From: Bacteroidota bacterium
GTDB lineage: Bacteria; Bacteroidota; Bacteroidia; Chitinophagales; JADIYW01
Direction: 5' to 3'
NCBI GenBank assembly: GCA_016705125.1
Contig: JADIYW010000025.1
Span: 6,722 to 70,721 of the forward strand
Length of the DNA: 64,000 bases
The notes under the pieces were generated by a model that ran no database searches, was not told the DNA's origin, and saw only the letters and a program-made list of their open reading frames with translations. Shown in pieces: positions 12,148 through 54,702 of the stretch. Each line of letters starts with the position of its first letter. Positions within the stretch are counted from its first letter, which is position 1. Both the position numbers and the translations under genes were made by a program.

Positions 12148-14105
12148 TTATTTGTTGTTTTTTATTAAAATGTGTGCATTCAAATAAGGCCAAAATAAAG
12201 AACAATCTACATCAGACCAAGTTTTATTCTTTGCTTTTGATAATGCCCATTCACTTAATTTTTTCCCTTCAAAAATAGTTGATTGTTGAAATTCAAGTGA
12301 ATTTATTTCATCTTGCAGAAATTCAGACATCGGTCCATTAAACCACTCTACCATAGGCGAACCAAGTCCAATTTTTAATTTCCTATTTCTAATAATTTCT
12401 GGCATTATTCCCTTCATCGAATCTCTTAAAATTCTCTTCGTAAACCCTCCACCAATTTTGCTTTGCTGCGGAATAGAAAAAATAAATGACACCAACCTAT
12501 AATCCATAAATGGCATTCTTATTTCAATACCATGTTGCATTGAGCCTCTATCAAAATCTCTTAAATTATAAGGCAATTCGTCATAATGGAAATGATTATA
12601 AATAATAGATTCTTTCGTTTCTCTGTTTTTCTCCCTATAAAAATCATCGCTAATATATGGAATAGATCGAATCTCTTGCTCTTTTAAAAAATCATGCGAA
12701 TTTATAGGCGAAAGTCCATTGACCTTTTTTGGAGGAAAAAGGTGATGTTTTACGGCTCTTAATTTTTTGTAAACAGGATTTTGTCTATTTTTTGAATTAA
12801 AAAGCGCTTCAATTGTAGCCTGTTTTTCCTTTCTTTCTTCAGGAAAAAGGATGTCTAAATAGGTTTCCTTTAATGCCATTGCAGATGGGTCGTTCTGCTC
12901 AATAGCCATTCTCATTGCCGAAAAAACGGAGTTTCGATATCCATACATCATCTCATCCACTCCATGTCCATCCATGGATACGATAATTTTGTCGGCACGC
13001 ATGCCCTTATAAACATCGGTAAGACAAATAATTGGACCGCCCGAAATGCCATCAAATAATATAGTTCCTTTTTCGATATCCGATATCAGATTTGTATAAT
13101 CGGGTATCAGATACTTGGCGTTTCCATTTGTAAATTTAATTACCTCCTCCGCATAATGTCGTTCATCCACTTTCGTATTTGGAAAGGTGGCCACAAATGC
13201 CTTTTGCCAATTTGATGGAAGTCGTTCTTTTTGAATCGAATTATCATTCATTAAATGGTGAAGCATACAATACACTGCCGATGAGTCCACTCCTCCACTT
13301 AGTGCGGAGGCTAAGGGAACATCAGACCGCATTCGGATACGACAAGCATCTTCAAAAATTTCTTTGAAATAGGCTACTTGATCTTCATAATTTGTAGGAA
13401 ATGTAACTAAATTATCGAGCGTACTCCACCATTTAATCTGAACAGGTTTCTGTCCTTTTTTATTTCAATATAATGCCCTGGCAATAATTGTGTGACATCT
13501 TTAAAAATAGTATACCCAAATGCCTCAATAGATGAAAAAGAAAGAATCGAACGAGATAAAAGTTGTGTGTCAAATTCTCTTTTAAAATTACTTAAATACT
13601 TAAAGGCTATCGTTTCGGATGCAAATGCAAAAAAATCATTCTGCTTATAAATATAATGTAGTGGCTTTACTCCAAATCTGTCTCGGGAAAGAAATAATTT
13701 CTTTTTAAAATTATCCCATATTGCAAATGCCCACATGCCATTGAATTTTTTTAGGCAGTCTTTACCCCAAAAATCGTATGCTGCTAATATCACTTCTGTA
13801 TCCGACTCAGATTTAAAATTATATCCTTCTGAAAGCAGTATTTTTTTTAATTCTATAAAATTATATATCTCTCCATTATAGGTAATGGAATAGCGATTGT
13901 TTAAATATTCAAGTGGTTGCTTTCCATTTTCCGAAAGGTCTAAAATAGAAAGTCTGCGGTGCCCCAACCCAAGTGTTTCATTATCATATAGTGTATAACC
14001 ACTCCCATCAGGGCCGCGATGTCTTAATGAATCTGTGAATTTTTCTAATTCATTTAATTCAACTAATCTGTTATTAAGATTCCAAACGCCTGCAATTCCA
14101 CACAT
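12148..14105 (-). pseudogene. asparagine synthase-family amidotransferase, split by a frameshift
   Basis: 13407-14105 encodes the GATase domain (MCGIAG...). 12148-13332 encodes the synthetase domain (SALSGGVDSSAV). The second frame is open upstream and reads QKPVQIKWWSTLDNLVTFPTNYEDQVAYFKEIFEDACRIRMRSDVP. One-base slippage in the T6/A6 run at 13456-13461 restores ...YIEIKKGQKPVQIKWW.... Confidence 0.75.
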
Positions 14106-32587: not shown

Positions 32588-32621
32588 CTCTTTTCGTTTA
32601 ATTTTGAATTGGTCAGTTTTC

Positions 32622-35600: not shown

Positions 35601-38600
35601 AATACAGATAGCCCTTATTTTCCATACATAATTTGTATTTGCCGTTAATCCAACAATCATTTTCGTGGTAAAAACAGAAGTATCTGTCTGCCAATTATTT
35701 GGCTGATTGGCTTTTCGGAAATCTATTTTATAGTATTGAGCGCCATTCACTGTAGTCCAATTCAATTGGGCTTGGGTAGTGCCAATATTTAATTCATTTA
35801 ATCCAATTGGTGTTGAAATTGAACAGTTACTTACTGTAGTAAAGTTTGAAAATGAAATTGCACTCGTATCTTGGGGCAAACAAATTGCTTGTATGCTAAA
35901 ATAATAAGTAGTTCCTGGATCTAAATTTGTTAAATTATAGGTATTCACATTTGGTGCTAAATTTACAAAAAGACCTGTTGGCCCTCCTCCTACGAAAAGT
36001 AACAATCCAATTGGTCCACCTGGAACTGTCCAATTTAGATTTGCTGTTGTTTGTGTTAGATTTGTAACTTGCCCTATTATTGGACCTAAACATGGAGAGC
36101 TTGTTGTGAAGGGTTGAAAATCAGAGAAATCGCTTTCAAGGCTTGGTGGACAAATTCTTTTTACACGCCATTGATAATCTGTACTTGGTTTCAAGCCAGT
36201 TACTCTTACAAAATTAGTATCTAAAGGAATTGAAATCCAATTTCCCCATGTTCCTCCAGCTAATTTCTCCCTATATTGAACTATAAAATTACTATCCGTA
36301 GCTGCCCAACTAAAAGAAGCAGCAGTCGAAGTAACAAAAGTGGTATTTAAATTATTAGGTATTTGACAATTACTTGGCAAGGTTTGGAAGGTAGGATTGG
36401 GAGTTGGGCTAAACGGTGATTGAATACCATTACATTGTGCTTTTACTCTAAAAACATATTTTTTATCAGGTGACAATCCTGTTAATAAAAACGAATCTGC
36501 ATTCACTCCTACTGTAATCCAATCATTATCAACCACTAATTTATAATCCAAAATATAACTTATAGCCGATGGAACTACATTCCATTTTAACAAAGCTGAT
36601 ATAGGTGTAATATTGAATGCTAAAAGATTGGTTGGTTGGCTACATGGATTTATAGTTGAAAAATTTGCTATTGGAGTAGACCAAACACTTTCAAGGGTAG
36701 CAAGACAGATACTTTTTACCTGCCATTGATAATCTGTTTCGGGAGTTAATCCTGTCAATAGATAAGAATTTGTATTTGACGAAGCTGGTAACCAATTTCC
36801 AAATGTTCCACCTGTAAGTTTTACTCGATATTGTAATGAATAAGAAGTTGCTCCTACCATTGTTGTCCAATTTAGCAATACCGAATAACCTGTATTGTTT
36901 GTTGTGGTTAAATTGATGGGTTCATTACAACCCAAGGTGGTGAATAGCTCTATTGGTGTTGACCAACTCCCCTCAAGGGTTGGCGAGCAAACACTTTTTA
37001 CCTGCCATTGATAGTTTTTATCAGGAGTTAAACCCACTAAAATTAATGAATCGGATGGTGCGGGCAAAGGGACCCAAACATCCCATGCTCCAGTGGGCAA
37101 TTTTTCTCTATACTGTATTTTATAAGACATTACCCCACTTACAGGACTCCAATTAATTGTGGCAGTATTTAATCCAATATTTATCGTACTTAAATTTGAA
37201 GGGGTTAAACAAGTTAAAGCTACCGTTGTAAATGCTTTTATTGGTGTTGTCCAACTACTTTCTAAGGTAGCTGAACATACTGATTTTACTTGCCATTGAT
37301 AATCAGTGTCAGGAATAAGATTTGTTATTATTATAGAATCTACAATTGAAGTTAGCGGTATCCAAGCACCCCAAGCCCCTGTAGTTAATTTCTCCCTATA
37401 TTGTATTTTATAAGAAATCACACCATTCACTGCATTCCAATTTAAAATGGCTGATGTGGTTGTTATTCCAATAGTTGCTAATGCACTAGGTTCATTACAA
37501 CCTAACGTAGAAAAATTATTTATAGGGCTTGACCAAGCGCTCTCCAAAGTAGGTGAGCAAACACTTTTTACTTGCCATTGAAATTCCTTATCGGGGGTAA
37601 GCCCTGTTAAATTAAAGGAATCAGTTGTTGATGTTCCTGCCGACATCCAATTTCCCCATATTCCTAGTGCATTTTTTTCTCTATACTGGATTTTGTAAGT
37701 ACTAACCCCACTTACTAGGCTCCATTTGAATGTAGCTGAGGTTTGTTTAATATTTACAGTTATTGGATTGCTTGGTGTTAAACAAGTTAATGCTACAGTT
37801 GTAAAAGTAGAAATTGGATCAGTCCAACTACTTTCCAAACCACCTGAACAAACACTCTTTACTTGCCATTGGTAGTCTTTATCTGGTGTCAAATTATTCA
37901 ATGAAAATGAATTGGTAGCACTAATTAGTTGAATCCATGCTCCCCAACTTCCATTTGACTGCTTTTCTCTATATTGAATTTTATAGGATGTAACACCCAT
38001 ACCTGAAGTCCACCCTAAAACTGCAGTTGTTGTGGTAATTGATGTTGCTATTGGATTTGTAGGAAGGTTGCAAGCTAAAGTTGTAAAACTATTTACTGGT
38101 GTACTCCACGCACTTTCTAAAGTAGGTGAACAAATAGATTTAACCTGCCATTGATATTCTTTGGCTAAATTTAAACTTGATAAATTATAACTATTAGTAG
38201 TAGCATTTAAATTTAACCAATTACCCCAAGTGCCATTTGTTCCCTTTTCCCTATATTGGATTTTATAACCTGTTACTCCGCCCACCGCTGTCCAACTAAG
38301 CAAAGCACTAGAAGTTGTTATATTAGATGTGGTTGCATTTAATGGTGATAAACATCCTGATGAAACAGTTGTAAATGCCGAAATAGGGCTTGACCAATCA
38401 CTTTCTAAAGAAGCAGAACACACACTTTTTACTTGCCAATTGTATTCAGTGCCTGCCGCTAAATTTGTTAATACATAAGTGGAAGCGGTCGGATTTGTTG
38501 TAGTATTTACCCATGGACTCCATTGTCCATTTCCATATTTTTCTCTATATTGTATTTTGTATGAAGTGGCCTGTGCAACTGCCGCCCAATTAAGCGTAGC

Positions 38601-39323
38601 TGATGATTGTGTAATACTTGTCGTTGATTGATTTACAGGAATTGCACAAGCACTTAAAGTTGTAAATTCAGTACTGGGATCTGTATAATCACTTGAGGAA
38701 GAACCGCTACAATTTGTTTTTACATGCCATTGGCAGTTAGTTGAACCCGATAAACCTGTTACATTATATGTTGTTGATGTAGTGGAAGGGGGAGAAAACC
38801 AGGCTCCCCATGTTCCATTTGCCGCCTTTTGTCTATATTGTAAGCTGTATGATTGTGCTCCACTTACTGCAGTCCATGAAAAGGTTGCTGTTGTTATGCC
38901 TATATTTGTTGTTTGCATACCAGTAGGCAAAGCACAAGGATTTGGACTCGTATTAAATGAAATATTTGCACTATAAGCACTTGTGCCAGTAGGACATACC
39001 GCTTTTACACTGAATTGATATGTTGAACCAGGAGTAAGCCCTGTTAAAGCCCTTGTATTGCTAGTTGAATTTACAGTAAGATAAGTCCCTCCATTTATTT
39101 TATATCGCCAAGTATATTGGGTAGCTCCCACCACCGAATTACAATTCATAGTAGCAGTAGTAGGAGTAATATTTGTAGCTGTTAATCCTGATGGTACATC
39201 ACAATTAATATTAAATTTTTCCAAATTAATATTCTTCGAAAAGATAGGTTGAAAAAAACCAAAACTGAATTGGAAAAGAAAAAACAAAATTAATTGAACT
39301 ACTCTTAATTTTAAATTATTCAT
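32622..39323 (-). CDS. giant secreted/cell-surface protein P2: ~22 FN3-like modules + T9SS C-terminal sorting domain
   Basis: 2233 aa, ATG at 39323, with a signal peptide. Module order is collinear with P1 and P3. CTD: IIPNPTKGIFSLNF...INIYDITGKLI...GLYYLEL...KFVVFE. Only 34 nt separate its stop from the P1 ATG. Confidence 0.85.
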   Translation of the reverse strand: MNNLKLRVVQLILFFLFQFSFGFFQPIFSKNINLEKFNINCDVPSGLTATNITPTTATMNCNSVVGATQYTWRYKINGGTYLTVNSTSNTRALTGLTPGSTYQFSVKAVCPTGTSAYSANISFNTSPNPCALPTGMQTTNIGITTATFSWTAVSGAQSYSLQYRQKAANGTWGAWFSPPSTTSTTYNVTGLSGSTNCQWHVKTNCSGSSSSDYTDPSTEFTTLSACAIPVNQSTTSITQSSATLNWAAVAQATSYKIQYREKYGNGQWSPWVNTTTNPTASTYVLTNLAAGTEYNWQVKSVCSASLESDWSSPISAFTTVSSGCLSPLNATTSNITTSSALLSWTAVGGVTGYKIQYREKGTNGTWGNWLNLNATTNSYNLSSLNLAKEYQWQVKSICSPTLESAWSTPVNSFTTLACNLPTNPIATSITTTTAVLGWTSGMGVTSYKIQYREKQSNGSWGAWIQLISATNSFSLNNLTPDKDYQWQVKSVCSGGLESSWTDPISTFTTVALTCLTPSNPITVNIKQTSATFKWSLVSGVSTYKIQYREKNALGIWGNWMSAGTSTTDSFNLTGLTPDKEFQWQVKSVCSPTLESAWSSPINNFSTLGCNEPSALATIGITTTSAILNWNAVNGVISYKIQYREKLTTGAWGAWIPLTSIVDSIIITNLIPDTDYQWQVKSVCSATLESSWTTPIKAFTTVALTCLTPSNLSTINIGLNTATINWSPVSGVMSYKIQYREKLPTGAWDVWVPLPAPSDSLILVGLTPDKNYQWQVKSVCSPTLEGSWSTPIELFTTLGCNEPINLTTTNNTGYSVLLNWTTMVGATSYSLQYRVKLTGGTFGNWLPASSNTNSYLLTGLTPETDYQWQVKSICLATLESVWSTPIANFSTINPCSQPTNLLAFNITPISALLKWNVVPSAISYILDYKLVVDNDWITVGVNADSFLLTGLSPDKKYVFRVKAQCNGIQSPFSPTPNPTFQTLPSNCQIPNNLNTTFVTSTAASFSWAATDSNFIVQYREKLAGGTWGNWISIPLDTNFVRVTGLKPSTDYQWRVKRICPPSLESDFSDFQPFTTSSPCLGPIIGQVTNLTQTTANLNWTVPGGPIGLLLFVGGGPTGLFVNLAPNVNTYNLTNLDPGTTYYFSIQAICLPQDTSAISFSNFTTVSNCSISTPIGLNELNIGTTQAQLNWTTVNGAQYYKIDFRKANQPNNWQTDTSVFTTKMIVGLTANTNYVWKIRAICIANQQSPFSADKTFKTLSSCAAPDSLYTTNITTTNAILHWKAVVGAVAYQYQISTNPNNFTSPPIAISTNSATANNLLANTTYYFKVRSICSVGDTGIYSIVSSFTTPAFICTAPIGLTTNGISSTKATLSWTKLSNPPTIAYLVCYKKIVDTVWNCDTILNSINDPNDTLVGIGADSMRIGFRIDPPFTYPIAGLMPNTEYEWKVKSICINGESSDYSNPTTKFKTDSLCGMVKNLNVVRIGFDNATLKWTNTGGDIQLFKIRYRKVGTSVWTTKYSIKDSIKISGLLPNTTYEFQVQTTCSSPDTSAYTASVNFTTLTACNFDTPKNLKETSVTSTTASLSWTSINGVNFELSYKKINDPTFTTLVVTNPYILTGLLPNTTYVWKLRNKCAIGYGDFSAQTDTFTTSCKLPDSIQAISTNVGIATISWNAINIGAISYTIRYRKINTTNWTEENVIGNSLSLTGLENGIQYEYQIQTNCSANETSPWSSVLSFVVQTVCTMGATGLDASNITNNSAKLNWNPITVADGNIFNFYNILYRVDGSDPNIPASWTSKTSNTNSLQLNSLLPATKYYWKVNTWCSSGQGNSIEHSFTTLPGISNDCPVPTNISGVGKSLSSILVSWNAVPGTSGYKIQYSLTNGSNWTETTSTTNSITLTGLNEDKLYFFRVASFCNTPLAYSNWSTASSAYTFSQCNVGTVNTLYEWNLQQNTVELSWLGIVPTALNYEIRYKFTASPDWTWTAVTVGNVKKLLIGGLWSGTSYDWQIRPICANNGWGNWSVIRTFSTPTGFGGCGEGPDAIKVEKNADLTSEATVSWVIRGNPEGHLVKEKEVLQDGTFGTATNYSVRGNENSIILKGLKSDIKGYQYTVEVIADCGSDGLSTPAVINFQTDPKSFGSGKTTLTGININLKDIAIIPNPTKGIFSLNFNSEKEQSITINIYDITGKLIKSEWFEPINGYNKRDYNFTNLTSGLYYLELFDGKEKTAIKFVVFE
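36650..38750 (-). repeat. intragenic tandem array of ~282-292-bp FN3-module units (includes a ~570-bp two-module super-repeat)
   Basis: The plus-strand motif (t)tac(t/c)tgccattg(a/g)ta (reverse of YQWQVKS) recurs at ~36721, 37003, 37291, 37573, 37863, 38146, 38433 and 38725. Junction strings ggtgttaaacaagttaatgctacagttgtaaa (~37770) and ggggttaaacaagttaaagctaccgttgtaaa (~37200) lie ~570 bp apart. Confidence 0.7.
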
Positions 39324-39591
39324 AATATTTCTTTTTATTAAAATATAATTTGTTAGAATTACGAAAAGAGGGTATAAATTATTTTAAAAAAGTTTAAAAG
39401 CTAATTATCATAAATTAACTATTTTACTAATTCAAATTTAAACTAATGGTAAAGCTTATTTTATTACAATTTTTCGCATTTGTCAATAATAAATATTCAA
39501 TTATTGGAGATTTTTAGGCTTTTAAAAATTTTAAAATGCTGACTATAAACACATTATCACATTACATTTTTTTAACAAAAAAGTACTTTTT

Positions 39592-39618
39592 AAAAAAAAA
39601 GGGTAGCTAATGCCACCC
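39592..39618 (-). terminator. putative terminator after giant gene P3
   Basis: Minus strand reads GGGTGGC-atta-GCTACCC (one mismatch) followed by T9. It starts 25 nt after the stop at 39643. Confidence 0.5.
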
Positions 39619-39642
39619 TTTTATCAAACAAAATGATTTACC

Positions 39643-42600
39643 TTACTCTGCAATAACCACTTTTGAAGTTGTTTTTATCCCATTATTAATCATATCTACA
39701 AAATAAATGCCTTTTGATATGCCTTCCAAATTGAACTGTTTTGTATTTATTCCTGTAGAAGTTGTAAATTCTTCGTATGCTATTGTTTTTCCAGTTAGAT
39801 CAAAAATCCTTAATGTAACATTTGATTCTTCCGTAGTTTCAAATCTAACGTCAAATATTCCACGTGTTGGATTTGGAACTATTTTCATATTTTGTAATGT
39901 TGTTACTTTATTCGACCCAGAACTCTTTTCGTAAATGGACTTCTCAGGATTGGTTCTAAAATCAATTATAGTTGGTTCTGACAATGTTTCTCCTTCTATA
40001 ACATCTGATGGAATACATTCAGTTATTATTTCAAATCTATATTCCTGGTCAAATTTGAGATTCGATAATTCAATTGAATTTATGCCACCCTCTATTGATC
40101 CATTTATTGCCGTTCCATACTCACCATCGTCTGTTCCTCCACCATCACCTGTGCCACCATCTGTCCCGCTTGGTTTAATTTTTTCTCTTAATTTAGTATA
40201 ATATTGAGTTACAACACTTGCATCCCTAGGTAGCCATGAAATAGTTGTTTTAGTATTTATGTCAGTTATACTATTTTCTTTTGGTGTCGCAACTACTGAT
40301 TCAATTTTGGTACATTTACCATCACCATCACCTCCTTGTAAACCACATGCTGTTACTAAATCCCTATTTTCGCTCCAATCACTAGATCCCGTAGGGCAAT
40401 TCGCTCTAACCCTCCAATGGTAACGGGTACAAGGCGCTAAGTTGGTAAGGGTAACTGTATTGGTTGAACTAGTTACTTGTAAAGACCATGGTGTGCCACT
40501 ATCTGATTCCTTTCTATATTGAATAGTATAATTTATTACTCCTGGAGGTATGTCATTTCCGATATTAAATCCAACAATACAAGGGATACAAAGATTACAA
40601 AACATTCCGTTCCAAAAACATTCCCAAGAATCCCAAGATTGAATTGGAGAATCTCCAAATTCATTAAAATTCCATCGAAGACCAGCACTAGTTAATTGAA
40701 TATTCTTATTTCGAGGATGTGTTGGTGGCAATAAGTTACACGTGGTTTTAATTGTTACTGACATTGTACTGCTCCAACTGCCTATATTAAAATTGCTACA
40801 TAAGGTTCTTATTCTAAAATAGTAGGTGGTACCTGAAGTTAATCCCGTCAATACAATAGTAGTAGTGGTGCTTGTAACAATTGTCCATGGACCATCTGGC
40901 GAAGTGCTATAATTCAATTCATAAGAAAGCGCACCAGGTACTGCTTGCCAAAAAAATGTGGCTCCGTCTAAAGAATTTGACCAAGACTCAATTTGTTGTG
41001 GCACTTCACATAAAAGTGGCGTAAAACAAGAAGTATTGCCATATTCACTCTCGCCAGAATTGCATATTGATTTTACCCTCCAACAGTACTTAACACCAGT
41101 TTCCAAGCCTGAAATAACAAAGGTATTCGTTGGTGCTGCTACCTCATACTCTTGTCCTCCGTTGGCAGGATCGCTTTCTTTTCTAATTTTTATTCTATAT
41201 TTTATGATTCCAAAACTAGGATTTACTGCTGTCCATGACAAAGTAGCTCCATCATAAGTTATGGCCGATTCGGTTAATCCTCCAGGACCATTCAAGGTAC
41301 AATTATCTTTTATTGTTACTGTTTTTACTGGACTCCATACACTTAAATCATTTGGTCCACAAATGGTTTGTACTTGATACTCATAAGTAGCACCCAAAGT
41401 TAATCCTGATAAATTAACTGTATTGGTTGACTGAGTTGAGTTTATCCAATTTGGATCACCCACTTTTCTGTATCTAAAATTATAACTTATTCCACTTTGA
41501 TTTGAAATAGCCCAAGTAATTAATGCTGTACCCAAGGAATTTGAAACACCTGTTATATCATTTGGTAATTTACATTCTTCATTTGTTTTAAATGTAGCCA
41601 AAGGTGAAGACATTGGTCCAAAACCAGTAGCACAAACTCGCCTAACTTTCCAAACATAATTAGTATTAGGCATAAGTCCTGTTAGTGTCTTCCAATTATC
41701 CATCTGAGTAATAACAATAAAATCCATTGCTCCAGCTTCTTTATACGACAATTCATATCCATTTGTATTATCACCAAACCAACTCCATTCCAACAATACT
41801 GAAGTAGAAGTGATTTGAGACGAAGTTAGATTAGTTGGTGCTACAAAATTACATGGAGTTAATGTTTTCCATGGAAAAGGAGGCGAGCTATAATCAGATA
41901 CATCAGGTGAAGTACATTGAGACAATATTTTAAACTCATAATTCGTATTCGCTAGCAAAGTAGTTATTCTTAATGTGTCTTTTGTTCCTGCTGCAAAACG
42001 ATTTATCCAACTAGTGGCACCAACAACTCTATATTGAATTCTAAACAAAGAAACATCACTTCCAGCTGGTATGTTCCATTTAAGTGTAGTGGCTGTTGCT
42101 GTAATATTACTTACCATTAATCCATTAGGGATTTTACATAATCCATCTGTTGTAAATGGGATAAGTGAAGAGAAAGGACTTTCAGATCCATTCGAACATA
42201 TACTCTTTACCTTCCAAACATAATCAGTACTTGGCATTAATCCAGAAGCTGTGGCAGACATATACTCTACAGGAGGCAACGGTGGCAAGCCCATTCTTCC
42301 TGAACTATCTGGTAATGGATCTAAAATTACCCCACCAGTTCCTGCACTAGTATTTTGAACAGTATCACAATTCCAAGTTGTTTCACTTACTTTTTTGTAG
42401 CATACATAATAAGACGCGGTTGGTGGTTTAGGCTGTTTCAACCATTTAAAAGTAGCTTTGGTAGAACTGATATTGTTTGTAGTTAATTCTACCGGAGGTA
42501 CACAATTATAAGGTGCGGTAGCAAATTGAAAATGAGGACTAAATAAGGTACTTGTATCATTGCCTTCACAAACCGTTTTAACTCTAAAATAGTAAGTTGT

Positions 42601-45186
42601 ATTAATTATTAAGCCATTTAATAAATATGAATTTGTAGTGGTAGTTATAAATGTTGTTGGCCAAACAGCAGGATTAGTGGTTACTTGAACTAAATACTTA
42701 ATAGCACTATTTATGTTTGACCAATTCAATATTACGCTTGTAGTGGTTATGTCTGTTACACTTAAATTATTAGGAAAATTACATGCTGAATTTGTTTTAA
42801 ATTCTCTAATATTACTATAATCGCTTTCCAAGCCTCCACCACAAACACTCTTTACTCGCCATGTATAGTTTGTATTCGGTTGTAGGTTTGCAATGGAAAC
42901 GGAATTAGTTGGACTTGTACCTGTAAATCCATTTGCCCAATTTGGATCACTTGATAATCTATATTGATAAATGTATTGTTGTGCTCCAAACATTTGTGTC
43001 CAAGTTAGTGTGGCTTCATTAGCTGTTACATTCAATTCGGATAAATAAATAGGAGGTGTTTCGTTACATGGTGTATTCACAATTATTGTTCCTGTGACAC
43101 TAAAACTAGTTGTATCTCCTATGGCACAAATCGTACTAACTTGATAATTGTAGGTTGCTCCTGCCGTTAATCCAGTGGCTATAAAGGAGTTACTTGGGTG
43201 ATTAACTGAACCAAAATTTGTCCAATTGGGCTCTGTTGATAGCTTATACCTTATATGGTATCCATAGGCATTTGGTACTACATTCCACGTTATGGTAAAT
43301 GCATCAGTTGAGTTGGAGATTGCGTCAATTCCTCCTGGAAAACTACAACCCAATGTAGTAGAAAAAGCCGTAATTGGTGTTGTCCATGCACTTTCTAGAG
43401 TTGGAGAACAAACACTCCTCACTTGCCATTGGTAATCTTTATCCGCATTCAATCCCGTTAGATTATAGAAATTAGATCCTGCTGTAAATTCTTGCCATGT
43501 GCCCCAACTTCCATTTGGCTGCTTTTCTCTATATTGAATCTTATAGGATGAAGCAGAAGGATTTACCACCCAATTAAGCGTGGCGGAGCTGCTTGTTATG
43601 CCTGTTGTCGTTAAGCCTGTTGGTGGGTTGCAAACCAAACCAAGAGTATGAAATAATTCACTCGCTGACCAGCCACTTGATAAAGTTGCTGTACAGTTGC
43701 TTTTTACTTGCCATTGATGATCCTTATCCGATACTAATCCTGTTGCATCATAAAACAAAGTGGTTACAGGGGTTGGAACGTCAGTCCAAGTGGATGGCCA
43801 TGAACCATCTGGATTTTTTGCTCTATACCTAATACTATAAGATATTGCACCCGGTACAATATTCCAATTAAATTTAGCACTAGTGGTGGTAATATTTGTG
43901 GTAGTGGTATTTGTTGGGGACGTACATGCTAGGGTTGAATAGTTCTTTATCGGATCCCAAGCACTTTCCACATTATTGGCACATACACTTTTTACTTGCC
44001 ATTGTTGATCTCTATCTTCTGCAAGACCACTCACATCATAAAATATAGCCGTAATAGTAGTATTTGGTTCTGTCCAATTTGTAGGCCATGTTCCATTTGT
44101 ATTTTTTTGTCTATATTTTACTTTATATCCAACCACTCCAGCTACGGGCCACCAGTTAAATCGTGCACTATTGGTAGTAATATTAGTTGTTTTGTTGCTA
44201 TCCGCTATCGGCGGGTCACACGTTAATGAAAGGGTTTGAAAAGTAGGATTTGGAGTAGCTGAACATGCTACAATACCCCCCGCACAATTTGTACACACTT
44301 TATATGTATAACTTGTATTTACATCTAATCCTGTTAAACTATATGATGTATTTGGAGTATTTATAAGAATCCAGTTTGGATCACTTACTTTCTTATATTC
44401 CAGGTTGTAGGAAATAGCTCCATTACCAGCCGTCCAACTAAGATTGACAGAGGTTGTAGTAATATTACTTGAAGAAAGATTTGTTGGTGCTCCACATGCT
44501 GACTGAGTTGTAAATAATATTAAAGAAGAATAATCTCCTTCATTGGCACCACATATCGCCTTTACATGCCACTGATGGTCTCTATTTTCTGTCAATCCAT
44601 TCGCAGTATGTGTTGGATTGGTTGGATTAGGAGTAACAGTAACCCATGTTGCTGGCCATGATCCATCAGTATTTTTTTGTCTGTACTGTACTTTATAAGC
44701 TGAAGCTCCTGATACCGCTGTCCAATTAAAGGTAGCTGATGAAGTGGTTATATTTGTCGTAGTTGGATTAGCAGGAACACCACAAGCACTGCCCTGTGTG
44801 GTAAATGAAGAAGAAGCACTAAATGCACTACTTCCACTTGGACAAATGGCTTTAACCCTATATTGGTAATCAGAAGCTGGTGTTAAACCCGTAATTAGTT
44901 TAGAATTGGTTGTAGAGCCTACGGTAACCCAAGTTCCTCCTGTTATCTTATACGAAAATTGATAATTGGTTGCACCACTTACTACCGCACAACCCAATGT
45001 TGCCTCCGTACTGGTAATGCCCGTGGCAGTAAGTGATGTGGGCACATCGCAGGCCATCGGTTTATAAATTATAGACTTATTCTCTTTAAAAACAATGGTT
45101 TTATTTTGTTCTCCGCCAATTGTAGGTAGACTAAAAACTACTACCATAAAAAATAAAATAATGTTGTTTAGTCCTTTCATATCCAT
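39643..45186 (-). CDS. giant secreted/cell-surface protein P3: ~17 FN3-like modules + T9SS C-terminal sorting domain
   Basis: 1847 aa. ATG at 45186 (alternative Met3) with a signal peptide. Same module grammar as P1 and P2. CTD: KIVPNPTRGIFDVRF...LRIFDLTGKTI...GIYFVDM...KVVIAE. Confidence 0.85.
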   Translation of the reverse strand: MDMKGLNNIILFFMVVVFSLPTIGGEQNKTIVFKENKSIIYKPMACDVPTSLTATGITSTEATLGCAVVSGATNYQFSYKITGGTWVTVGSTTNSKLITGLTPASDYQYRVKAICPSGSSAFSASSSFTTQGSACGVPANPTTTNITTSSATFNWTAVSGASAYKVQYRQKNTDGSWPATWVTVTPNPTNPTHTANGLTENRDHQWHVKAICGANEGDYSSLILFTTQSACGAPTNLSSSNITTTSVNLSWTAGNGAISYNLEYKKVSDPNWILINTPNTSYSLTGLDVNTSYTYKVCTNCAGGIVACSATPNPTFQTLSLTCDPPIADSNKTTNITTNSARFNWWPVAGVVGYKVKYRQKNTNGTWPTNWTEPNTTITAIFYDVSGLAEDRDQQWQVKSVCANNVESAWDPIKNYSTLACTSPTNTTTTNITTTSAKFNWNIVPGAISYSIRYRAKNPDGSWPSTWTDVPTPVTTLFYDATGLVSDKDHQWQVKSNCTATLSSGWSASELFHTLGLVCNPPTGLTTTGITSSSATLNWVVNPSASSYKIQYREKQPNGSWGTWQEFTAGSNFYNLTGLNADKDYQWQVRSVCSPTLESAWTTPITAFSTTLGCSFPGGIDAISNSTDAFTITWNVVPNAYGYHIRYKLSTEPNWTNFGSVNHPSNSFIATGLTAGATYNYQVSTICAIGDTTSFSVTGTIIVNTPCNETPPIYLSELNVTANEATLTWTQMFGAQQYIYQYRLSSDPNWANGFTGTSPTNSVSIANLQPNTNYTWRVKSVCGGGLESDYSNIREFKTNSACNFPNNLSVTDITTTSVILNWSNINSAIKYLVQVTTNPAVWPTTFITTTTNSYLLNGLIINTTYYFRVKTVCEGNDTSTLFSPHFQFATAPYNCVPPVELTTNNISSTKATFKWLKQPKPPTASYYVCYKKVSETTWNCDTVQNTSAGTGGVILDPLPDSSGRMGLPPLPPVEYMSATASGLMPSTDYVWKVKSICSNGSESPFSSLIPFTTDGLCKIPNGLMVSNITATATTLKWNIPAGSDVSLFRIQYRVVGATSWINRFAAGTKDTLRITTLLANTNYEFKILSQCTSPDVSDYSSPPFPWKTLTPCNFVAPTNLTSSQITSTSVLLEWSWFGDNTNGYELSYKEAGAMDFIVITQMDNWKTLTGLMPNTNYVWKVRRVCATGFGPMSSPLATFKTNEECKLPNDITGVSNSLGTALITWAISNQSGISYNFRYRKVGDPNWINSTQSTNTVNLSGLTLGATYEYQVQTICGPNDLSVWSPVKTVTIKDNCTLNGPGGLTESAITYDGATLSWTAVNPSFGIIKYRIKIRKESDPANGGQEYEVAAPTNTFVISGLETGVKYCWRVKSICNSGESEYGNTSCFTPLLCEVPQQIESWSNSLDGATFFWQAVPGALSYELNYSTSPDGPWTIVTSTTTTIVLTGLTSGTTYYFRIRTLCSNFNIGSWSSTMSVTIKTTCNLLPPTHPRNKNIQLTSAGLRWNFNEFGDSPIQSWDSWECFWNGMFCNLCIPCIVGFNIGNDIPPGVINYTIQYRKESDSGTPWSLQVTSSTNTVTLTNLAPCTRYHWRVRANCPTGSSDWSENRDLVTACGLQGGDGDGKCTKIESVVATPKENSITDINTKTTISWLPRDASVVTQYYTKLREKIKPSGTDGGTGDGGGTDDGEYGTAINGSIEGGINSIELSNLKFDQEYRFEIITECIPSDVIEGETLSEPTIIDFRTNPEKSIYEKSSGSNKVTTLQNMKIVPNPTRGIFDVRFETTEESNVTLRIFDLTGKTIAYEEFTTSTGINTKQFNLEGISKGIYFVDMINNGIKTTSKVVIAE

Positions 45187-50200: not shown

Positions 50201-50253
50201 TTTTTTTGTCTTTTCAATAATTACAGACGGCTTGTTAGGGTTGAAAGTAATTT

Positions 50254-50466
50254 CAGACTCCTACATAGGCGGGACAGATAGAAAAAAAACTTCTAACAAT
50301 ATTCTAGTAAAAATAGTATCATTTATCGTATCTTTTTCGTGTTTTGATAAAATAAAGGGAATGGATTTTAATGCAGAATATGAAACTCAGCAGTCAAAAA
50401 ATTAAAAACCCATAAGCATCAAAAAAAGTACAATAGCTACCCAAAACGAAAGCAAATAGGGCATCG
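50254..50466 (-). repeat. conserved spacer module, copy 1 (most diverged)
   Basis: Shares cagactc..gggacag..gaaaaaa(a)cttc.aacaat...aaaatagtat.atttatc.ta...ttttcgt...cagaatatgaaac...aaaaaattaaaaacccataag with 51152-51336. Confidence 0.6.
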
Positions 50467-50531
50467 CTTCAACAACCCTTTAAAATGAAATTTTTTTTTG
50501 GGAAAAAACACCGTTTAAACCTTATCTGTTA
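50467..50531 (-). repeat. attC-like imperfect hairpin repeat, copy 1
   Basis: Plus strand: cttcaacaaccctttaaaatgaaatttttttttgggaaaaaacaccgtttaaaccttatctgtta. Ends 10 nt before the ParE-like stop. The inner stem is a T-run/A-run instead of TTTTGC/GCAAAA. Confidence 0.6.
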
Positions 50532-50540
50532 TACAAGGGT

Positions 50541-50846
50541 TTATTTTAATTTTCTTTTCTTAGGATCTTGTCTGTTTGAAAAAAATAAAAGAATTTCAAC
50601 ATTATTTTCATTGATTCTATAATACAAAGTACTTAATTTCAAAACAACAGCTCTTCTAACATCTTTTTTAATTTCGGATGCTTGGAAAAGATATGGATTA
50701 TTTGAAATTAGAATTAAAGTTTTCTCAAGATTAGTAGCCAAGTTTCTGAGTTCTTTTTCGGTCCAATGTTCCTCTAAATATTCAACAGTTTTTTGTAATT
50801 CCTTCAGCGCATTGTCAGTCCAAAGAATTTTATAACCATTTTTCAT
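50541..50846 (-). CDS. type II toxin-antitoxin system RelE/ParE-family toxin
   Basis: 101 aa. YKILWTDNALKELQKTVEYLEEHW...VVLKLSTLYYRINENNVEILLFFSNRQDP is the typical Bacteroidota ParE-like pattern. 17-nt overlap with the upstream antitoxin. Confidence 0.8.
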   Translation of the reverse strand: MKNGYKILWTDNALKELQKTVEYLEEHWTEKELRNLATNLEKTLILISNNPYLFQASEIKKDVRRAVVLKLSTLYYRINENNVEILLFFSNRQDPKKRKLK

Positions 50847-51069
50847 ATAATTTTCTAGCTGTTGAATGAGGATTTAGTTTTCCAGATTCTGCATCTTTCA
50901 AACCAAGTTCAATGAATTCTTTTTCATTTTCCGAAATAGAATTCCACCAATCTTTACTTTCCTTTTTTCTTAAATCCATAATTTTCTCAATAATTGAAGA
51001 ATCTTCAATTGTAGATAACCATTGGATCAATTCCAACTTCTGATTCAAAATATTTGGATTCACATTCAT
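50830..51069 (-). CDS. cognate antitoxin (addiction-module component)
   Basis: 79 aa. Position and overlap with the toxin. ...KLELIQWLSTIEDSSIIEKIMDL...WWNSISENEKEFIELGLKDAESGKL pattern. Confidence 0.65.
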   Translation of the reverse strand: MNVNPNILNQKLELIQWLSTIEDSSIIEKIMDLRKKESKDWWNSISENEKEFIELGLKDAESGKLNPHSTARKLYEKWL

Positions 51070-51151
51070 AATAGCAAAATTTAAAAAACAAAGTTAATAA
51101 TTAATTATTGTAGTTCTAAAAAAATGCGGATTAAAAACTGTTGTAGAACGT

Positions 51152-51336
51152 CAGACTCTCGCTTTGGCGGGACAGGTTGTGAAAAAACTTCCCACAATCT
51201 TTTGTAAAAATAGTATAATTTATCATACATTTTTCGTAATTTGTTTAAAAAAAAGGGGATGAATTTTATTACAGAATATGAAACAACGAAGGCAAAAAAT
51301 TAAAAACCCATAAGTAATCCATTCCGTAGGGCCACG
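51152..51336 (-). repeat. conserved spacer module, copy 2
   Basis: cagactctcgctttggcgggacaggttgtgaaaaaacttcccacaatc...attaaaaacccataagtaatccattcc. The ends are near-identical to copy 3, and the middle is similar to copy 1. Confidence 0.65.
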
Positions 51337-51401
51337 CTTCAACAGCCCTTTAAAACGCAATTTTTGCAGTAGCAAAATCAGGGTTTAAATGTTATATGTT
51401 A
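51337..51401 (-). repeat. attC-like imperfect hairpin repeat, copy 2
   Basis: cttcaacagccctttaaaacgcaatttttgcagtagcaaaatcagggtttaaatgttatatgtta. The final tta is the complement of the Fic gene TAA stop. Confidence 0.65.
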
Positions 51402-52016
51402 TGCATTGTTCTTTTCATCAATTAGCTCCAATATTAATTCTGTTAATATTTCAACATTACTCTGAATTGTTCCTTTCATATATCTTTCGTAAACACTTTT
51501 GTCATCAGGTGGATTTAGATTTAGTTTTAATTTCTTTTCTAAAGCCAATAACCTTAAAAATTCGCGTTGTGTTCGTCCATTTCCTTCTCTAAAAGGATGC
51601 AAATAGTTTACGTTGTCTAAAATTTCTGCTAATTTCTTTGCTAATTCTGTCTTATTGGACTTTTTTATTTTCCGATAATCTGAAATTAGAGTGTCGATAT
51701 ATTGAAAGCCAATATAAAATCTTTCACCGTTAAAAAAAGGTTTTCCATCCTTGCTTATATTTACGGTTCTAACTTGTCCTGCCCACTTATAAACATCTTG
51801 AAACAAATGATGATGAATTTTAAGCAATGTGTTAGAATCCTTAATTTTTATCGGATTTTCTAAAAATTCTTCAACTCGCTTAGTAACTTTTAAACTTTCA
51901 AACGCTAATAGAACTTTTTCGTTTTGAATGTTAGCTAAATTGTGAAGCAAACCATTTTTGTCAGTGTACTTAAAATCTGGATCTAAATAATGATAGCTAT
52001 TTTCATTATTTTCCAT
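51399..52016 (-). CDS. Fic family protein (AMPylase/adenylyltransferase-type)
   Basis: 205 aa. Canonical Fic motif HPFREGNGRTQR. Confidence 0.85.
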   Translation of the reverse strand: MENNENSYHYLDPDFKYTDKNGLLHNLANIQNEKVLLAFESLKVTKRVEEFLENPIKIKDSNTLLKIHHHLFQDVYKWAGQVRTVNISKDGKPFFNGERFYIGFQYIDTLISDYRKIKKSNKTELAKKLAEILDNVNYLHPFREGNGRTQREFLRLLALEKKLKLNLNPPDDKSVYERYMKGTIQSNVEILTELILELIDEKNNA

Positions 52017-52227
52017 AAATGGCGTATAGCTTTGTCAACAAGTCATTTTCTGATAATATACCTGTTTTCCAATCAACATAAAGTTGTACTAATTCTTTTG
52101 TCGGTTCAAATCCCTCAAACATATTTGTTCCAATTGCATTAGCCGTGTTTTCCAAACTTTTAAGGTCAGAAAATTTAACTCCCATTAAAGTGAGATTTTT
52201 ACGGTCTATATCTATTGTTTTATACAT
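52006..52227 (-). CDS. VbhA-like antitoxin / Fic inhibitory partner
   Basis: 73 aa. Overlaps the Fic start by 11 nt. Contains TNMFEG, which matches the [ST]xxxE[GN] inhibitory helix motif. Confidence 0.65.
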   Translation of the reverse strand: MYKTIDIDRKNLTLMGVKFSDLKSLENTANAIGTNMFEGFEPTKELVQLYVDWKTGILSENDLLTKLYAIYGK

Positions 52228-52321
52228 CTCTATGAATTTAAATACATTAACAAAATTACGAAAAAAATTTTAAAAATAGGTCGTTTTTTTCTTCGCTTCT
52301 CAATTAGATTAGTGCATAAAG

Positions 52322-52512
52322 CAGACTCCCGCTTTTTCGGGACAAGATGTGAAAAAACTTCCCACAATCATGCATAAAAATAAGCATAAATTTGGACTAT
52401 TATGCGTATCTGTCTAAAAAAAGAATACTGCATTTTATACCCCAGTTTGCCACATAGCCGGCAAAACATTAAAAACCCATAAGTAATCCATTCCAAATAG
52501 GGCTTCAATTCA
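52322..52512 (-). repeat. conserved spacer module, copy 3
   Basis: cagactcccgctttttcgggacaagatgtgaaaaaacttcccacaatc...cattaaaaacccataagtaatccattcc. Confidence 0.65.
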
Positions 52513-52582
52513 ACAGCCCTTTAAAACGCAATTTTTGAAGTAGCAAAATCAGCGTTTAAACCTTATATGTTAGCAGTAGTGG
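52513..52582 (-). repeat. attC-like imperfect hairpin repeat, copy 3
   Basis: cttcaattcaacagccctttaaaacgcaatttttgaagtagcaaaatcagcgtttaaaccttatatgtta. Has a 5-nt duplication at the outer end. Ends 7 nt before the stop of 52589-53158. Confidence 0.65.
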
Positions 52583-52588
52583 TTATAT

Positions 52589-53158
52589 TCACATTTCCAA
52601 TTCTATTTCCCATTCTTCAACTTTTTCATTGTCTAAAAACCATTGTGTTGCTCTGTCAATGGCATATTCTTGATTAGTTACTTTGTCTCCTGAAAACTGT
52701 AAATTGTTAGCCCATATAACAAATACTGTTTCCCAAAATGTCGCACCAAAAGTTATACATTCTTTAAATAGATTATTTGTCGAAGAAAGTTTTTCTATTT
52801 GGTCAAATGCTATTCTATAAGCAAAGTCTTTCAAACAATTCGTGAAATCTTCTCCATCAATGTCAAAATTTATTTCCCACTTTTCAAAGTTGTCAAAATG
52901 TCGAAAATTATCTAAATCAATAGTTTTGCATAGATACTGTGCAACCCTTTTACTCATTGGGTCTAAATTCTGTGACCTTTTTTTATGATTTGCAAATACG
53001 CAAAAAGCTTCGAAAAACAGATTTGGATTCTCTCTTATAAAGTCAATGTGGTATGTCTTTAACTGATTATTAAGTAGGTCAAAGTCCAGCGTCCCATTAA
53101 CAAAGTAATAAGTAAAAAACCTTATGTCTGCTTTTGATTTTAAGTCAAGTGAATTCAT
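52589..53158 (-). CDS. hypothetical cytoplasmic protein (cassette cargo, no recognisable motif)
   Basis: 189-aa ORF with ATG confirmed. Acidic and Trp/Phe-rich. No family recognised by eye. Confidence 0.4.
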   Translation of the reverse strand: MNSLDLKSKADIRFFTYYFVNGTLDFDLLNNQLKTYHIDFIRENPNLFFEAFCVFANHKKRSQNLDPMSKRVAQYLCKTIDLDNFRHFDNFEKWEINFDIDGEDFTNCLKDFAYRIAFDQIEKLSSTNNLFKECITFGATFWETVFVIWANNLQFSGDKVTNQEYAIDRATQWFLDNEKVEEWEIELEM

Positions 53159-53376
53159 TTTTGTTCTTTCGTTTGCGGTTTGCTACCATTCTGACTAACG
53201 TTTTTATAATTTATTGTATTTCAATTAGTTGTAATTTTTAAATCTTCATCAGTGAGTGCGAATTTAGTAATTTGTTTTTGAATTCTTTTTACAATTCCTA
53301 ATTTTCTTTTTTTTGAAATTCCAGGTTTTTTATAAATAAAATTTAATTACCCATACCCTCCACAAATTGAGCCACC

Positions 53377-53441
53377 CTTCAACAACCCTTTTAAACGCAA
53401 TTTTTGCTGTAGCAAAATCAGCGTTTAAACCTTATATGTTA
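53377..53441 (-). repeat. attC-like imperfect hairpin repeat, copy 4
   Basis: cttcaacaacccttttaaacgcaatttttgctgtagcaaaatcagcgtttaaaccttatatgtta. The final tta is the complement of the TAA stop of 53439-54377. Confidence 0.65.
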
Positions 53442-54377
53442 ACTGCCGTATTTCTTTCCCAAGTCATTTGTCAAGTTGCTAAATACATAATCGTGTTCCT
53501 GTCTAATACCAAGTTCTTCCATTGGTTGCCAATACCATCTTGGTGTCAAAACCGAAGTGTAGGTTGTCACGCGCGTCAATTTACAACTAGGGTCGTCAAC
53601 TTTGTCAAAATAGTAAATGGCTTGTTTAAAGCCAAGCCAATTACGTCCGATTAAATTATAGTCAGTTACGTCCATTTTTAAAATTTTTCCTCTTTCAAGT
53701 TCTGTAATTTTTTCAACAATTGTCCCGCCACCAAAGTCGGCATTACTGAAATTGCCGCCTTTAAAATAACAAGTCCTAATACCGCCAACTTCTTCTTTTT
53801 CTAACACGCATTTTGTCGGAACAGGTAAGTCAAAGCTCATTAAGAAGGGCTTTTCAGCGTCTAATGTGTCAACTGATTTAATAGCATCATAAACTTGTTC
53901 TGGGGTATAATTGAAAACTTGCTCTGTTCTTACTTCAATAATTTCCTCTTTGTCCTTTTTGAGAAAATGCTCTGTCGGTGCTGCAATTAAAAACGGAATA
54001 AGAGGTAAAATTAAAACAGAAAGTCTATTTGTGCCTTTGATTTGTTTATACCTTTTGACTAAATGAGAAATTACATAACCAAGAAAAATGAAAGGTGTAA
54101 CTAATGCCAATGCCATTACGATACAAATTAGTCCAGACAAACCTGGAATAACAAGGCATATCAGTATAATGGCTGCGGAAATTAATGCAGCCCTAAGGAT
54201 GTATTTTTTATTTGGCATTGACCCAATTGAAACGCCTAAAACAATTGGCAGAAGAACAAACAATACCCAACTATAGTCAACAAGTCCAAGAAATAGAAAT
54301 GCTATGCCTGTCCCGAGAAAAATTAGCGTCAGTATGATTGAAAGTTGGAAGCTTCTGTCTTTTAGTATTTCTTTCAT
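53439..54377 (-). CDS. membrane protein: N-terminal 4-TM region + C-terminal SRPBCC/START-like domain (tentative)
   Basis: 312 aa. The hydrophobic N-terminal ~130 aa are followed by a soluble ~180-aa domain (EVRTEQVFNYTPEQVYDAIKSV...VGGIRTCYF...) that resembles the polyketide-cyclase/SRPBCC layout. Confidence 0.4.
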   Translation of the reverse strand: MKEILKDRSFQLSIILTLIFLGTGIAFLFLGLVDYSWVLFVLLPIVLGVSIGSMPNKKYILRAALISAAIILICLVIPGLSGLICIVMALALVTPFIFLGYVISHLVKRYKQIKGTNRLSVLILPLIPFLIAAPTEHFLKKDKEEIIEVRTEQVFNYTPEQVYDAIKSVDTLDAEKPFLMSFDLPVPTKCVLEKEEVGGIRTCYFKGGNFSNADFGGGTIVEKITELERGKILKMDVTDYNLIGRNWLGFKQAIYYFDKVDDPSCKLTRVTTYTSVLTPRWYWQPMEELGIRQEHDYVFSNLTNDLGKKYGS

Positions 54378-54588
54378 TGTCTATTTTGTTGTCTGTTGTG
54401 TCGTTCTTTAATATGGCAGGTAACTTGTCTACATGCGCTAAGTCGTAACACACATACATCCTACTGTTGGTGCGATATGTGTAATTAGGTAGCTTTTTGT
54501 TTTTAAAACAAATCTATCCATTTTTTCTTTATAAATATATCAATTAAAGACAAATTTCCAAAAACCTCTCATTTCCCATTTCTCTCTT

Positions 54589-54702
54589 CCCCGCGTGAGG
54601 GATTGGAGCGGTATCCTTTTTTTTTGTCATGCATTTTGAGTTGGGCAAAAAAGATACAAGCGCAAAGCCCGACCGCTGCTTTTTGGAGCAGTGGGCACGC
54701 CC
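54589..54702. repeat. composite palindromic element between the cassette array and prfA
   Basis: Left arm ccccgcgtgagggattggagcggtatccttttttttt. Right arm caaaaaagatacaagcgcaaagcccgaccgctgctttttggagcagtgggcacgccc. The arms are imperfect inverted copies (AAAGGATACCGCTCCAATCCC vs AAAGATACAAGCGCAAAGCCC). The right arm holds an 8-bp hairpin, CCGCTGCT-ttttgg-AGCAGTGG. Confidence 0.4.

Follow-up and report, generated by a model that had tools for sequence, protein, structure and literature searches.

The window analysed here is a 64-kb stretch of DNA (64,000 nucleotides of contig JADIYW010000025.1) from an uncultured Bacteroidota bacterium of activated sludge/wastewater. Between an HxlR gene on one side and prfA on the other, it carries an array of four gene cassettes whose genes are co-oriented and low in GC (~32%), each cassette being followed by a copy of a hairpin repeat that is termed H below. 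The first cassette abuts prfA and the Flavo-1 RNA motif, with no H-like site there. The Flavo-1 motif, which is antisense to prfA and the array, is present in all strain variants of the locus (junctions x, y and z included), and the left edge of the variable region lies near 54566, 18 nt from it. In the order of transcription, the cassettes and the position of Flavo-1 are:

54584-54678, plus strand: Flavo-1 RNA motif (Rfam RF01705, 42.5 bits with a gathering threshold of 42, E=1.2e-6)
53439-54377, minus strand: first cassette, a membrane plus SRPBCC-like protein of 312 amino acids (aa) (Pfam Polyketide_cyc2, weak)
52589-53158, minus strand: DUF7677 cassette, 189 aa (Pfam DUF7677, E=1.8e-16)
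51399-52227, minus strand: VbhA-like antitoxin (52006-52227) and Fic toxin (51399-52016) cassette (Pfam Fic, E=2.1e-15; VbhA, E=7.9e-4, weak and below the cut-off)
50541-51069, minus strand: ParDE-type toxin-antitoxin (TA) cassette, antitoxin 50830-51069 and ParE 50541-50846 (Pfam ParE_toxin, E=3.4e-7)

The bounds and the cargo agree with those given in an initial annotation made from the sequence alone, with ParE_toxin, Fic and DUF7677 recognised by Pfam and the VbhA and Polyketide_cyc2 matches weak.

H is about 65 nt long and AT-rich, with an AAC/GTT clamp, and all four copies lie on the strand of the genes:

53377-53441, minus strand: H copy 4, which folds best of the four; its TAAC is shared with the SRPBCC stop codon
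52508-52572, minus strand: H copy 3; the DUF7677 stop codon is 16 nt before it
51337-51401, minus strand: H copy 2; its TAAC is shared with the Fic stop codon
50467-50531, minus strand: H copy 1, the diverged one, whose inner stem is a T-run/A-run; the ParE stop codon is 9 nt before it

The four repeats noticed initially are real and far beyond chance, a 36-nt core of H being found in three copies at one mismatch or fewer against 0.00 expected (100 shuffles), with copy 1 as the diverged one; the third copy, placed at 52513-52582 in the initial annotation, is at 52508-52572. The copies are spaced by 870, 1171 and 869 nt. The TAA of the repeat TAAC is indeed the stop codon of two genes, SRPBCC (53439-53441) and Fic (51399-51401), and the absence of a U-tract holds as well, no T-run following the stem of the window copies on either strand. 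Folded as DNA, copy 4 reaches -12.4 kcal/mol (z=-3.1 against shuffles), copy 3 -7.2 kcal/mol (z=-1.07) and copy 1 -4.4 kcal/mol (z=+1.05), and copy 2 folds poorly (z=+0.19) because of a CCC/GCG mismatch in its outer stem. Copy 1, whose T-run/A-run had been taken for a change of sequence with pairing kept, is rather a decayed copy, and a truly compensated inner stem (TTTTTTC/GAAAAAA) is present in H copies from metagenomes. The hairpin itself is backed by covariation. Across 14 distinct H copies from the window and related contigs, 94.7% of the cells are paired, compared with 41-59% in slid controls, and five pairs have changed on both sides, compared with 1.5±0.7 in shuffles (0/500). The covariation is confined to the inner stem, and AAC and GTT are invariant in 13-14 of the 14 copies.

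The element of about 65 bp is not the whole repeat, as had been supposed; H is just the 5′ part of a conserved inter-cassette region (ICR) of 245-290 nt, whose bounds come from an alignment of 17 junctions of different strains. In gene direction, the ICR runs from (T)AAC through H, a tail, a block, the X-Y module and a second small hairpin (hp2) to the cassette-specific sequence. The tail, which starts CGAGGCCCTATTT, is 25-60 nt long and has two length variants, and the block TTATGGGTTTTTAAT comes after it. The X-Y module, of about 180 nt, is AT-rich, has no open reading frame (ORF) and contains GATTGTGGGAAGTTTTTTCACAAC. The second hairpin has the form GTCCCGCC-AAAG-CGGGAGTCTGAC and reads, with its surroundings, CACAAC-..-GTCCCGCC-AAAG-CGGGAG-TCTGAC|GTTnnnn. 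The ICR copies are direct repeats, 75-95% identical, and in three of the four window copies conservation continues for about 180-225 nt past H in gene direction. The four regions of the window are:

53192-53441, minus strand: ICR a (SRPBCC to DUF7677), with H, tail and a different AT-rich middle
52313-52572, minus strand: ICR b (DUF7677 to VbhA-Fic), with H, tail, X-Y and hp2 at 52322-52343
51143-51401, minus strand: ICR c (Fic to ParDE), with H, tail, X-Y and hp2 at 51150-51173, then GTTCTAC
50245-50531, minus strand: ICR d, terminal (ParE to chromosome), with H, tail, X-Y and hp2 at 50252-50275

ICR a ends in AAAAAC|GTTAGTC (53192-53205), 34 nt before the DUF7677 ATG (about 40 nt when counted from the G of GTTAG to the ATG), and its type of middle is also found in the related contig L149 (related contigs are given by L numbers). 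The whole of ICR b precedes Fic whether the upstream cassette is DUF7677 or Macro, and the terminal unit of ICR d meets different chromosomal flanks in L011 and L016. Each cassette comprises a set of native genes with some 20-95 nt of their own upstream sequence and at most 27 nt past the stop codon. In other Flavobacterium genomes, homologues of ParDE (76-88% identity) stand alone, without H or ICR, and the stretch over which these native loci are homologous to the window cassette starts directly behind GAGTCTGAC and stops no more than 10 nt from the stop codon. Since the native ParDE loci lack H and ICR, the ICR is a discrete spacer between captured native modules, and for the same reason it was ruled out as the native promoter region of ParDE. 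A type I toxin-like peptide from a small hydrophobic ORF in the ICR was also ruled out, since start codons and frames vary between copies. An Rfam scan of 48-56 kb (E<=10) gave no match at H or the ICR, Flavo-1 alone being found nearby.

The content of the array varies greatly between strains. Among the contigs that carry the prfA protein of the window or a variant in its 90% cluster (P0243), about ten different cassette orders are found at the prfA locus, IS (insertion sequence)-disrupted versions and others among them:

SRPBCC / DUF7677 / Fic / ParDE
SRPBCC / UvrD / Gp49-HTH / 119aa
DarT-Macro / Fic / ParDE
DUF6932-HTH-ParA/TPR / ParDE / UvrD / Gp49-HTH / 119aa
DUF6932-HTH-ParA/TPR / ParDE / 106-aa gene (in the place of UvrD) / Gp49-HTH / 119aa
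Fic / 106aa / Gp49-HTH

Cassettes are thus gained, lost and swapped between strains. The DUF7677 cassette is missing from the variants in L001, L011, L016 and L082, and the position of the SRPBCC cassette is held in other strains by DarT-Macro or DUF6932-HTH-ParA/TPR. The defence and TA cargo across the loci includes DarT-Macro, Fic, ParE, Gp49/HTH, HigBA-like genes, the UvrD helicase and AAA_15 with a partner. Many contigs break off at the prfA locus. The presence, absence and shuffling of cassettes in relatives that the initial annotation anticipated is therefore found, with breakpoints elsewhere than at the GTT of the repeat.

Parts of the arrays are decaying. The UvrD-helicase cassette is broken repeatedly, by a frameshift or split, a DDE_Tnp_1 IS or truncation (L082 15237-17077; L234 and L236 15260-18509; L237 15362-16537), and the ParE gene is frameshifted in L016 and L082. 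The chromosome at the end of the array also differs between strain groups. The HxlR-to-sigma-70 segment (46.7-50.2 kb of the window) is missing in one group (L011/L080), in which the last ICR adjoins Por_Secre_tail/fn3 giant-protein genes, and in a third group TauE, acetyltransferase and OmpA genes stand at the array end in its place.

The edges between cassettes and ICR recur at three places: at TAAC (sharp in every copy), in a zone at tail|TTATGGG and at hp2 ...GAC|GTT. The UvrD, 106-aa and ParDE cassettes have a constant 5′ edge at hp2 in two to three independent contexts each. GTTGAAG at the end of H, which had been read as an R′ box and cassette boundary, is never a junction; in every copy, those in very different contexts included, the conserved sequence extends at least 35 nt further, and in most about 180-225 nt. 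The attC rule, by which the crossover falls at G|TT of R′, does not describe H. When the ICRs are compared along their length in windows of 30 columns, pairs that share only the upstream cassette have identities of 0.95, 0.84, 0.78 and 0.78 over columns 1-120, and pairs that share only the downstream cassette have 0.82, 0.77, 0.57 and 0.20; over columns 121-330 the ranges are 0.41-0.93 and 0.91-1.00, respectively. These pairwise identities indicate that H and the tail move together with the cassette upstream, and that X-Y-hp2 mostly moves with the cassette downstream. Mosaicism is also evident in the ICRs, with 78 informative sites, 279 pairs of sites that are incompatible by the four-gamete test and a minimum of ten recombination events (Rm=10) over columns 31-289. 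The shuffling seen at present therefore stems largely from homologous recombination or gene conversion among the ICR copies.

A different lineage of uncultured Bacteroidia has a second hotspot, downstream of a YggS gene, whose sites look more canonical (L219-L224; for example, L223 10830-14445 and L220 10940-19937). Strains with identical YggS carry differing co-oriented cassettes, which end in sequence-diverse single hairpins of 95-240 nt with RYYYAAC/GTTRRRY ends, such as GCCTAAC...AAAACGTTAGCG and GCTAAC...GTTGAAT. Four strains are identical through ...GCAAAACGTTAG and unrelated beyond it. L222 (7917-8624) matches L220 except for an additional cassette of 689 nt, which stands between duplicated AACGTTAG, with the insertion exactly at GTTAG, so that the G|TT boundary rule holds in the YggS arrays, unlike in H. 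No integrase is found within 10 kb of these arrays. Several links connect them with the window: ICR a ends in AAAAAC|GTTAGTC, the flank of L110 is homologous to the YggS arrays up to TAACA, after which H stands in place of the attC-like site, and the Y-hp2 block occurs in L219 upstream of a Fic TA pair, without H (nhmmer E=3e-9). From these links, H and the ICR appear to belong to the same kind of system as a homogenised, composite derivative.

Further features were seen at these loci. The motif (T/C)GACAGAC(A/G)(A/G)AA lies about 12 nt before the TAAC of many cassette ends and often holds a TGA stop codon (L219 10940-10965; L220 14405-14433 and 19815-19845; L110; L114). In L110, an IS91-family Y2 transposase (Zn_Tnp_IS91 + Y2_Tnp, 39-1540) is about 260 nt from the H copy after YggS, and the sequence after H recurs in L114 behind a different cassette. 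The YggS protein of L110 (1759-2517) has homologues of 74-89% identity in metagenome-assembled genomes labelled Saprospiraceae, Flavobacterium, Ignavibacteriales, Balneolaceae and Lentimicrobium; such identity, unusually high across distant taxa, suggests horizontal spread or mis-binning.

Outside the array, H is rare. The 64-kb window has no other copy, and a degenerate pattern scan of 185,579 species-representative genomes gave 59 single chance matches, of which none was confirmed by nhmmer. Since H is absent elsewhere in the window and in these genomes, it is not a generic repetitive extragenic palindrome, miniature inverted-repeat transposable element (MITE) or terminator family, and the scattering that would have spoken for such a family was not seen in either. 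The features of an intrinsic terminator, a GC-rich stem and a T/U run, are not found in H, whose stem is AT-rich with no T run. The same pattern gave three single-copy matches in viral contigs, in which a scan for the Y motif gave none, and the ICR had no match among plasmids and phages. In metagenomes, the matches listed include at least four other H contexts. Those in L114 (after an AAA_15 ATPase pair), L149 (in a GNAT/TPR array) and L110 (after YggS) are cassette-like, and that in L140 (2797-2876) is a solo H with tail, antisense to its neighbours, in a phage-like contig with two DNA methyltransferases and small ORFans that share an orientation. Further true metagenome copies were probably missed, because the scan was flooded by an unrelated inverted-repeat family. 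The latter, a repeat of about 135 nt (…ATAACATATAAGTTTTAATAAATTGTAGTAATAGTG…CATGTTAAAACGC…) in L093-L212 from samples Ga0157362-Ga0157367, forms inverted pairs 2-3 kb apart and probably represents the ends of an IS or transposon.

Comparison with known systems places the array closest to integrons and to attC clusters that have no integrase (CALINs; 2016, PMC4889954; Neron et al. 2022, PMC9024848), which it resembles in having short co-oriented cassettes, each ending after its stop codon in an imperfect hairpin with an AAC...GTT base, repeats that are homogeneous within the array, content that differs between close strains and, as in CALINs, no adjacent integrase. It differs in that its element is 245-290 nt long and composite, with two small hairpins and an ORF-less module, versus a single hairpin of 57-141 nt, that the GTT of its hairpin is not a junction, that its junctions are blurred by homologous recombination and that its host belongs to a phylum with very rare integrons. 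Complete Bacteroidetes genomes very rarely carry integrons (PMC9024848), yet integrons have been reported for the phylum (PMC8618304). Chromosomal integrons, such as the sedentary chromosomal integrons of Vibrio, store TA and anti-phage cassettes (bioRxiv 10.1101/2024.07.02.601686), a type of cargo that the window array shares. A complete integron has IntI and an attI next to the first cassette; here, no such recombinase turned up either in the window or in the 10 kb on each side of over 40 related loci, and the first cassette abuts prfA/Flavo-1. A CALIN has at least two clustered attC sites and no integrase nearby; the window array has clustered repeats after co-oriented genes and is integrase-free, with H and hp2 as possible attC sites.

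To our knowledge, rAID-1, which depends on a linked XerD-like recombinase, is the only array-with-repeats system described in Bacteroidota. In Bacteroidales, it pairs this recombinase with genes in one orientation and with intergenic repeats like those of integrons (Ross et al. 2019, bioRxiv 10.1101/471110; PMC12247911). Its defining features are a XerD-family tyrosine recombinase at the 5′ end (>44% identity to BF9343_RS08045) and, behind it, at least two co-oriented low-GC genes. The window array shares with rAID-1 a Bacteroidota host, arrays of short co-oriented genes, intergenic repeats, which the authors of rAID-1 liken to integrons, protective cargo and signs of active acquisition. However, rAID-1 is defined by its recombinase, whereas the window array has none and is preceded by prfA, and the cargo of rAID-1 is orphan type VI secretion system immunity genes, whereas that of the window is TA and anti-phage modules. 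The YggS arrays are alike in that they follow a conserved gene, are variable and co-oriented and lack an integrase within 10 kb, in their 5′ edge nnnTAAC and 3′ edge ...AC|GTTA, in the shared Y-hp2 and in the presence of H at the same YggS site in L110; their sites are sequence-diverse single hairpins cut at GTTAG, while those of the window are homogenised, composite and uncut at the hairpin GTT. Defence islands and hotspots share with the array a fixed position (here prfA/Flavo-1), a high turnover of defence and TA genes, IS insertions and decaying genes, but ordinary hotspots have no 250-290-nt hairpin repeat after every module, no co-orientation and no fixed-motif edges.

Taken together, these features give about an even chance to the reading that the array is integron-like and integrase-less (CALIN-like), a derived defence/TA cassette array with non-canonical composite sites. 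The initial proposal of a CALIN or integron would then stand as to the cassette array, its integron-like behaviour, its TA and defence content and the lack of an integrase, and would fail as to the sites, which are not canonical attC and whose R′ had been wrongly placed. On the CALIN-like reading, the array would be a strain-variable store of self-contained TA and anti-phage modules just downstream of prfA/Flavo-1. The fixed edges (TAAC and ...AC|GTT) and the two AAC/GTT-clamped hairpins would be the remains of attC-type single-strand recombination sites, at which the cassettes would first have been loaded by an integron-type tyrosine recombinase, encoded elsewhere or lost, and the present shuffling would be homologous recombination or gene conversion between the directly repeated ICRs. 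More tentatively, the arrays could form a previously undescribed Bacteroidota cassette system, in which the inter-cassette elements are composite, two AAC/GTT-clamped hairpins standing on either side of a portable ORF-less module, and the cassettes are loaded by a distant or unrecognised recombinase, with no linked integrase, and then shuffled by homologous recombination, as a hypervariable anti-phage/TA store at prfA and YggS.

Several results weigh against the CALIN-like reading. A covariance model (R1), trained on eight extracted class 1 attC sites, recovered a held-out attC, that of lnuF, at 37.4 bits and gave no match at H or hp2 on either strand (E<=10); because R1 also missed the YggS-array sites, the model is narrow and its negative result carries little weight. 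A second model that mixed class 1 and Bacteroidia sites was dropped, since their spacer geometries differ (5/6 versus 1-3/5-7) and one fixed structure fits neither set. The hairpin stands, supported by the covariation of the 14 copies, but its R″ and R′ boxes pair over only 3-5 bp (TAACA/TGTTG), more weakly than in these class 1 attC sites, and R″ is, in its 5′ part, specific to the cassette, with no complementarity to GAAG. Nor are the spacers and the L box of the attC type. The spacers of H are 7-8 nt on the 5′ side and 5 nt on the 3′ side, which reverses the asymmetry of these class 1 attC sites (5 / 5-7 nt), and H has a symmetric 3x3 internal loop and no extrahelical bases in the L″ arm, most copies having one additional T on the 3′ arm; its geometry would fit attC better if the strand opposite to that of the genes were read. 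Of the four H copies in the window, two fold no better than shuffles. The whole ICR is not supported as a single hairpin (z=-0.55 and -0.92), and a ‘giant attC’ was ruled out by these values and by the unpaired ends. AC/AG|GTT is found at only four of the seven downstream edges, those of Fic, Gp49 and the terminal unit deviating, and homologous recombination alone can account for every exchange observed. Finally, apart from passenger IS, neither the window nor the 10 kb on each side of any of the more than 40 related loci was found to hold an integrase or other recombinase. Pfam detects no recombinase, Phage_integrase included, in 40 ORFs of the 64-kb window (ORFs <120 aa outside the array were not scanned), and the related-locus gene tables, which cover the giant fn3/Por_Secre_tail genes and the other ORFs in 45.5-48.1 kb, hold housekeeping and surface proteins and no recombinase, in line with the lack of a tyrosine recombinase stated at the outset.

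Many of these points are expected if the locus is a repeat-bounded defence/TA hotspot in which no site-specific recombinase acted at any stage, exchange being RecA-dependent, also after DNA uptake from other strains, and the ICR being a portable regulatory spacer that spread between modules, with H as a terminator or insulator and X-Y-hp2 as a promoter or leader. This is a possible explanation, though not a probable one. Breakpoints spread across the whole ICR (Rm=10), conservation that runs past GTTGAAG in every copy, the lack of a recombinase at any locus, the terminator-like position of H directly behind stop codons and the presence of the Y-hp2 block, with no H, ahead of a Fic TA pair of another species all agree with it. 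However, H is a weak, AT-rich hairpin that lacks a T/U tract and has a solo antisense copy in L140, and ParDE would need no promoter from the ICR because it has a predicted -7 box of the TAnnTTTG type of its own in the cassette-specific part. Moreover, homologous recombination cannot explain why unrelated modules have identical sharp edges at TAAC and hp2|GTT, nor why canonical attC-like sites stand at the equivalent position in a related lineage.

The very high diversity of the arrays among near-identical strains, the precise insertion of a single cassette at GTTAG in the YggS arrays and the compensatory change in the inner stem of H with an invariant AAC/GTT clamp would also suit an active chromosomal integron, whose integrase is elsewhere in the genome or beyond the contigs and recombines H and/or hp2 in trans as functional attC sites. 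That explanation is unlikely, since the integrase was not found in the window or within 10 kb in the more than 40 related loci, no junction of the window array demands a site-specific event over homologous exchange, several cassettes are decaying (UvrD split or with an IS; ParE frameshifted) and integrons are very rare in sequenced Bacteroidetes (PMC9024848). Far less probable still is that H and its tail are the end of, or a MITE from, a single-strand-processing element such as the IS91 family (Y2 HUH), whose one-ended or rolling-circle transposition built the arrays. The Y2 transposase close to H in L110, the recurrence of the post-H sequence in L114 and the solo H with tail in the phage-like contig L140 point that way, but the association is a single one, the more than 40 prfA-locus arrays have no Y2 transposase in their vicinity, H lacks terminal inverted repeats and neither the window nor the reference genomes show a scattering of the repeat. 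IS elements look like passengers of the arrays, because a DDE IS inserts there as well.

The findings matter beyond this locus. Integrons are considered nearly absent from Bacteroidota, and the window array, a hypervariable store in Bacteroidota that are abundant in wastewater, and the attC-like YggS arrays suggest that cassette capture in the phylum is wider and more varied than current tools report. The system would be a natural test case for the degeneration and homogenisation of attC-type sites and for homologous recombination taking over their shuffling. The edges TAAC, tail|TTATGGG and hp2|GTT are usable for mining cassettes from metagenomes, and the arrays explain the assembly breaks at the prfA locus.

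Elsewhere in the window, three giant ORFs (1907, 2233 and 1847 aa) lie on the minus strand at 26906-45186, and their counterparts at related loci have fn3 repeats and Por_Secre_tail; judging from these domains, the three giant proteins are likely type IX secretion substrates. Within a polysaccharide-biosynthesis cluster, on the minus strand, an asparagine synthase (12148-14105) is split into GATase (13407-14105) and Asn_synthase (12148-13332) parts, and an intact paralogue is present at 1197-3092.

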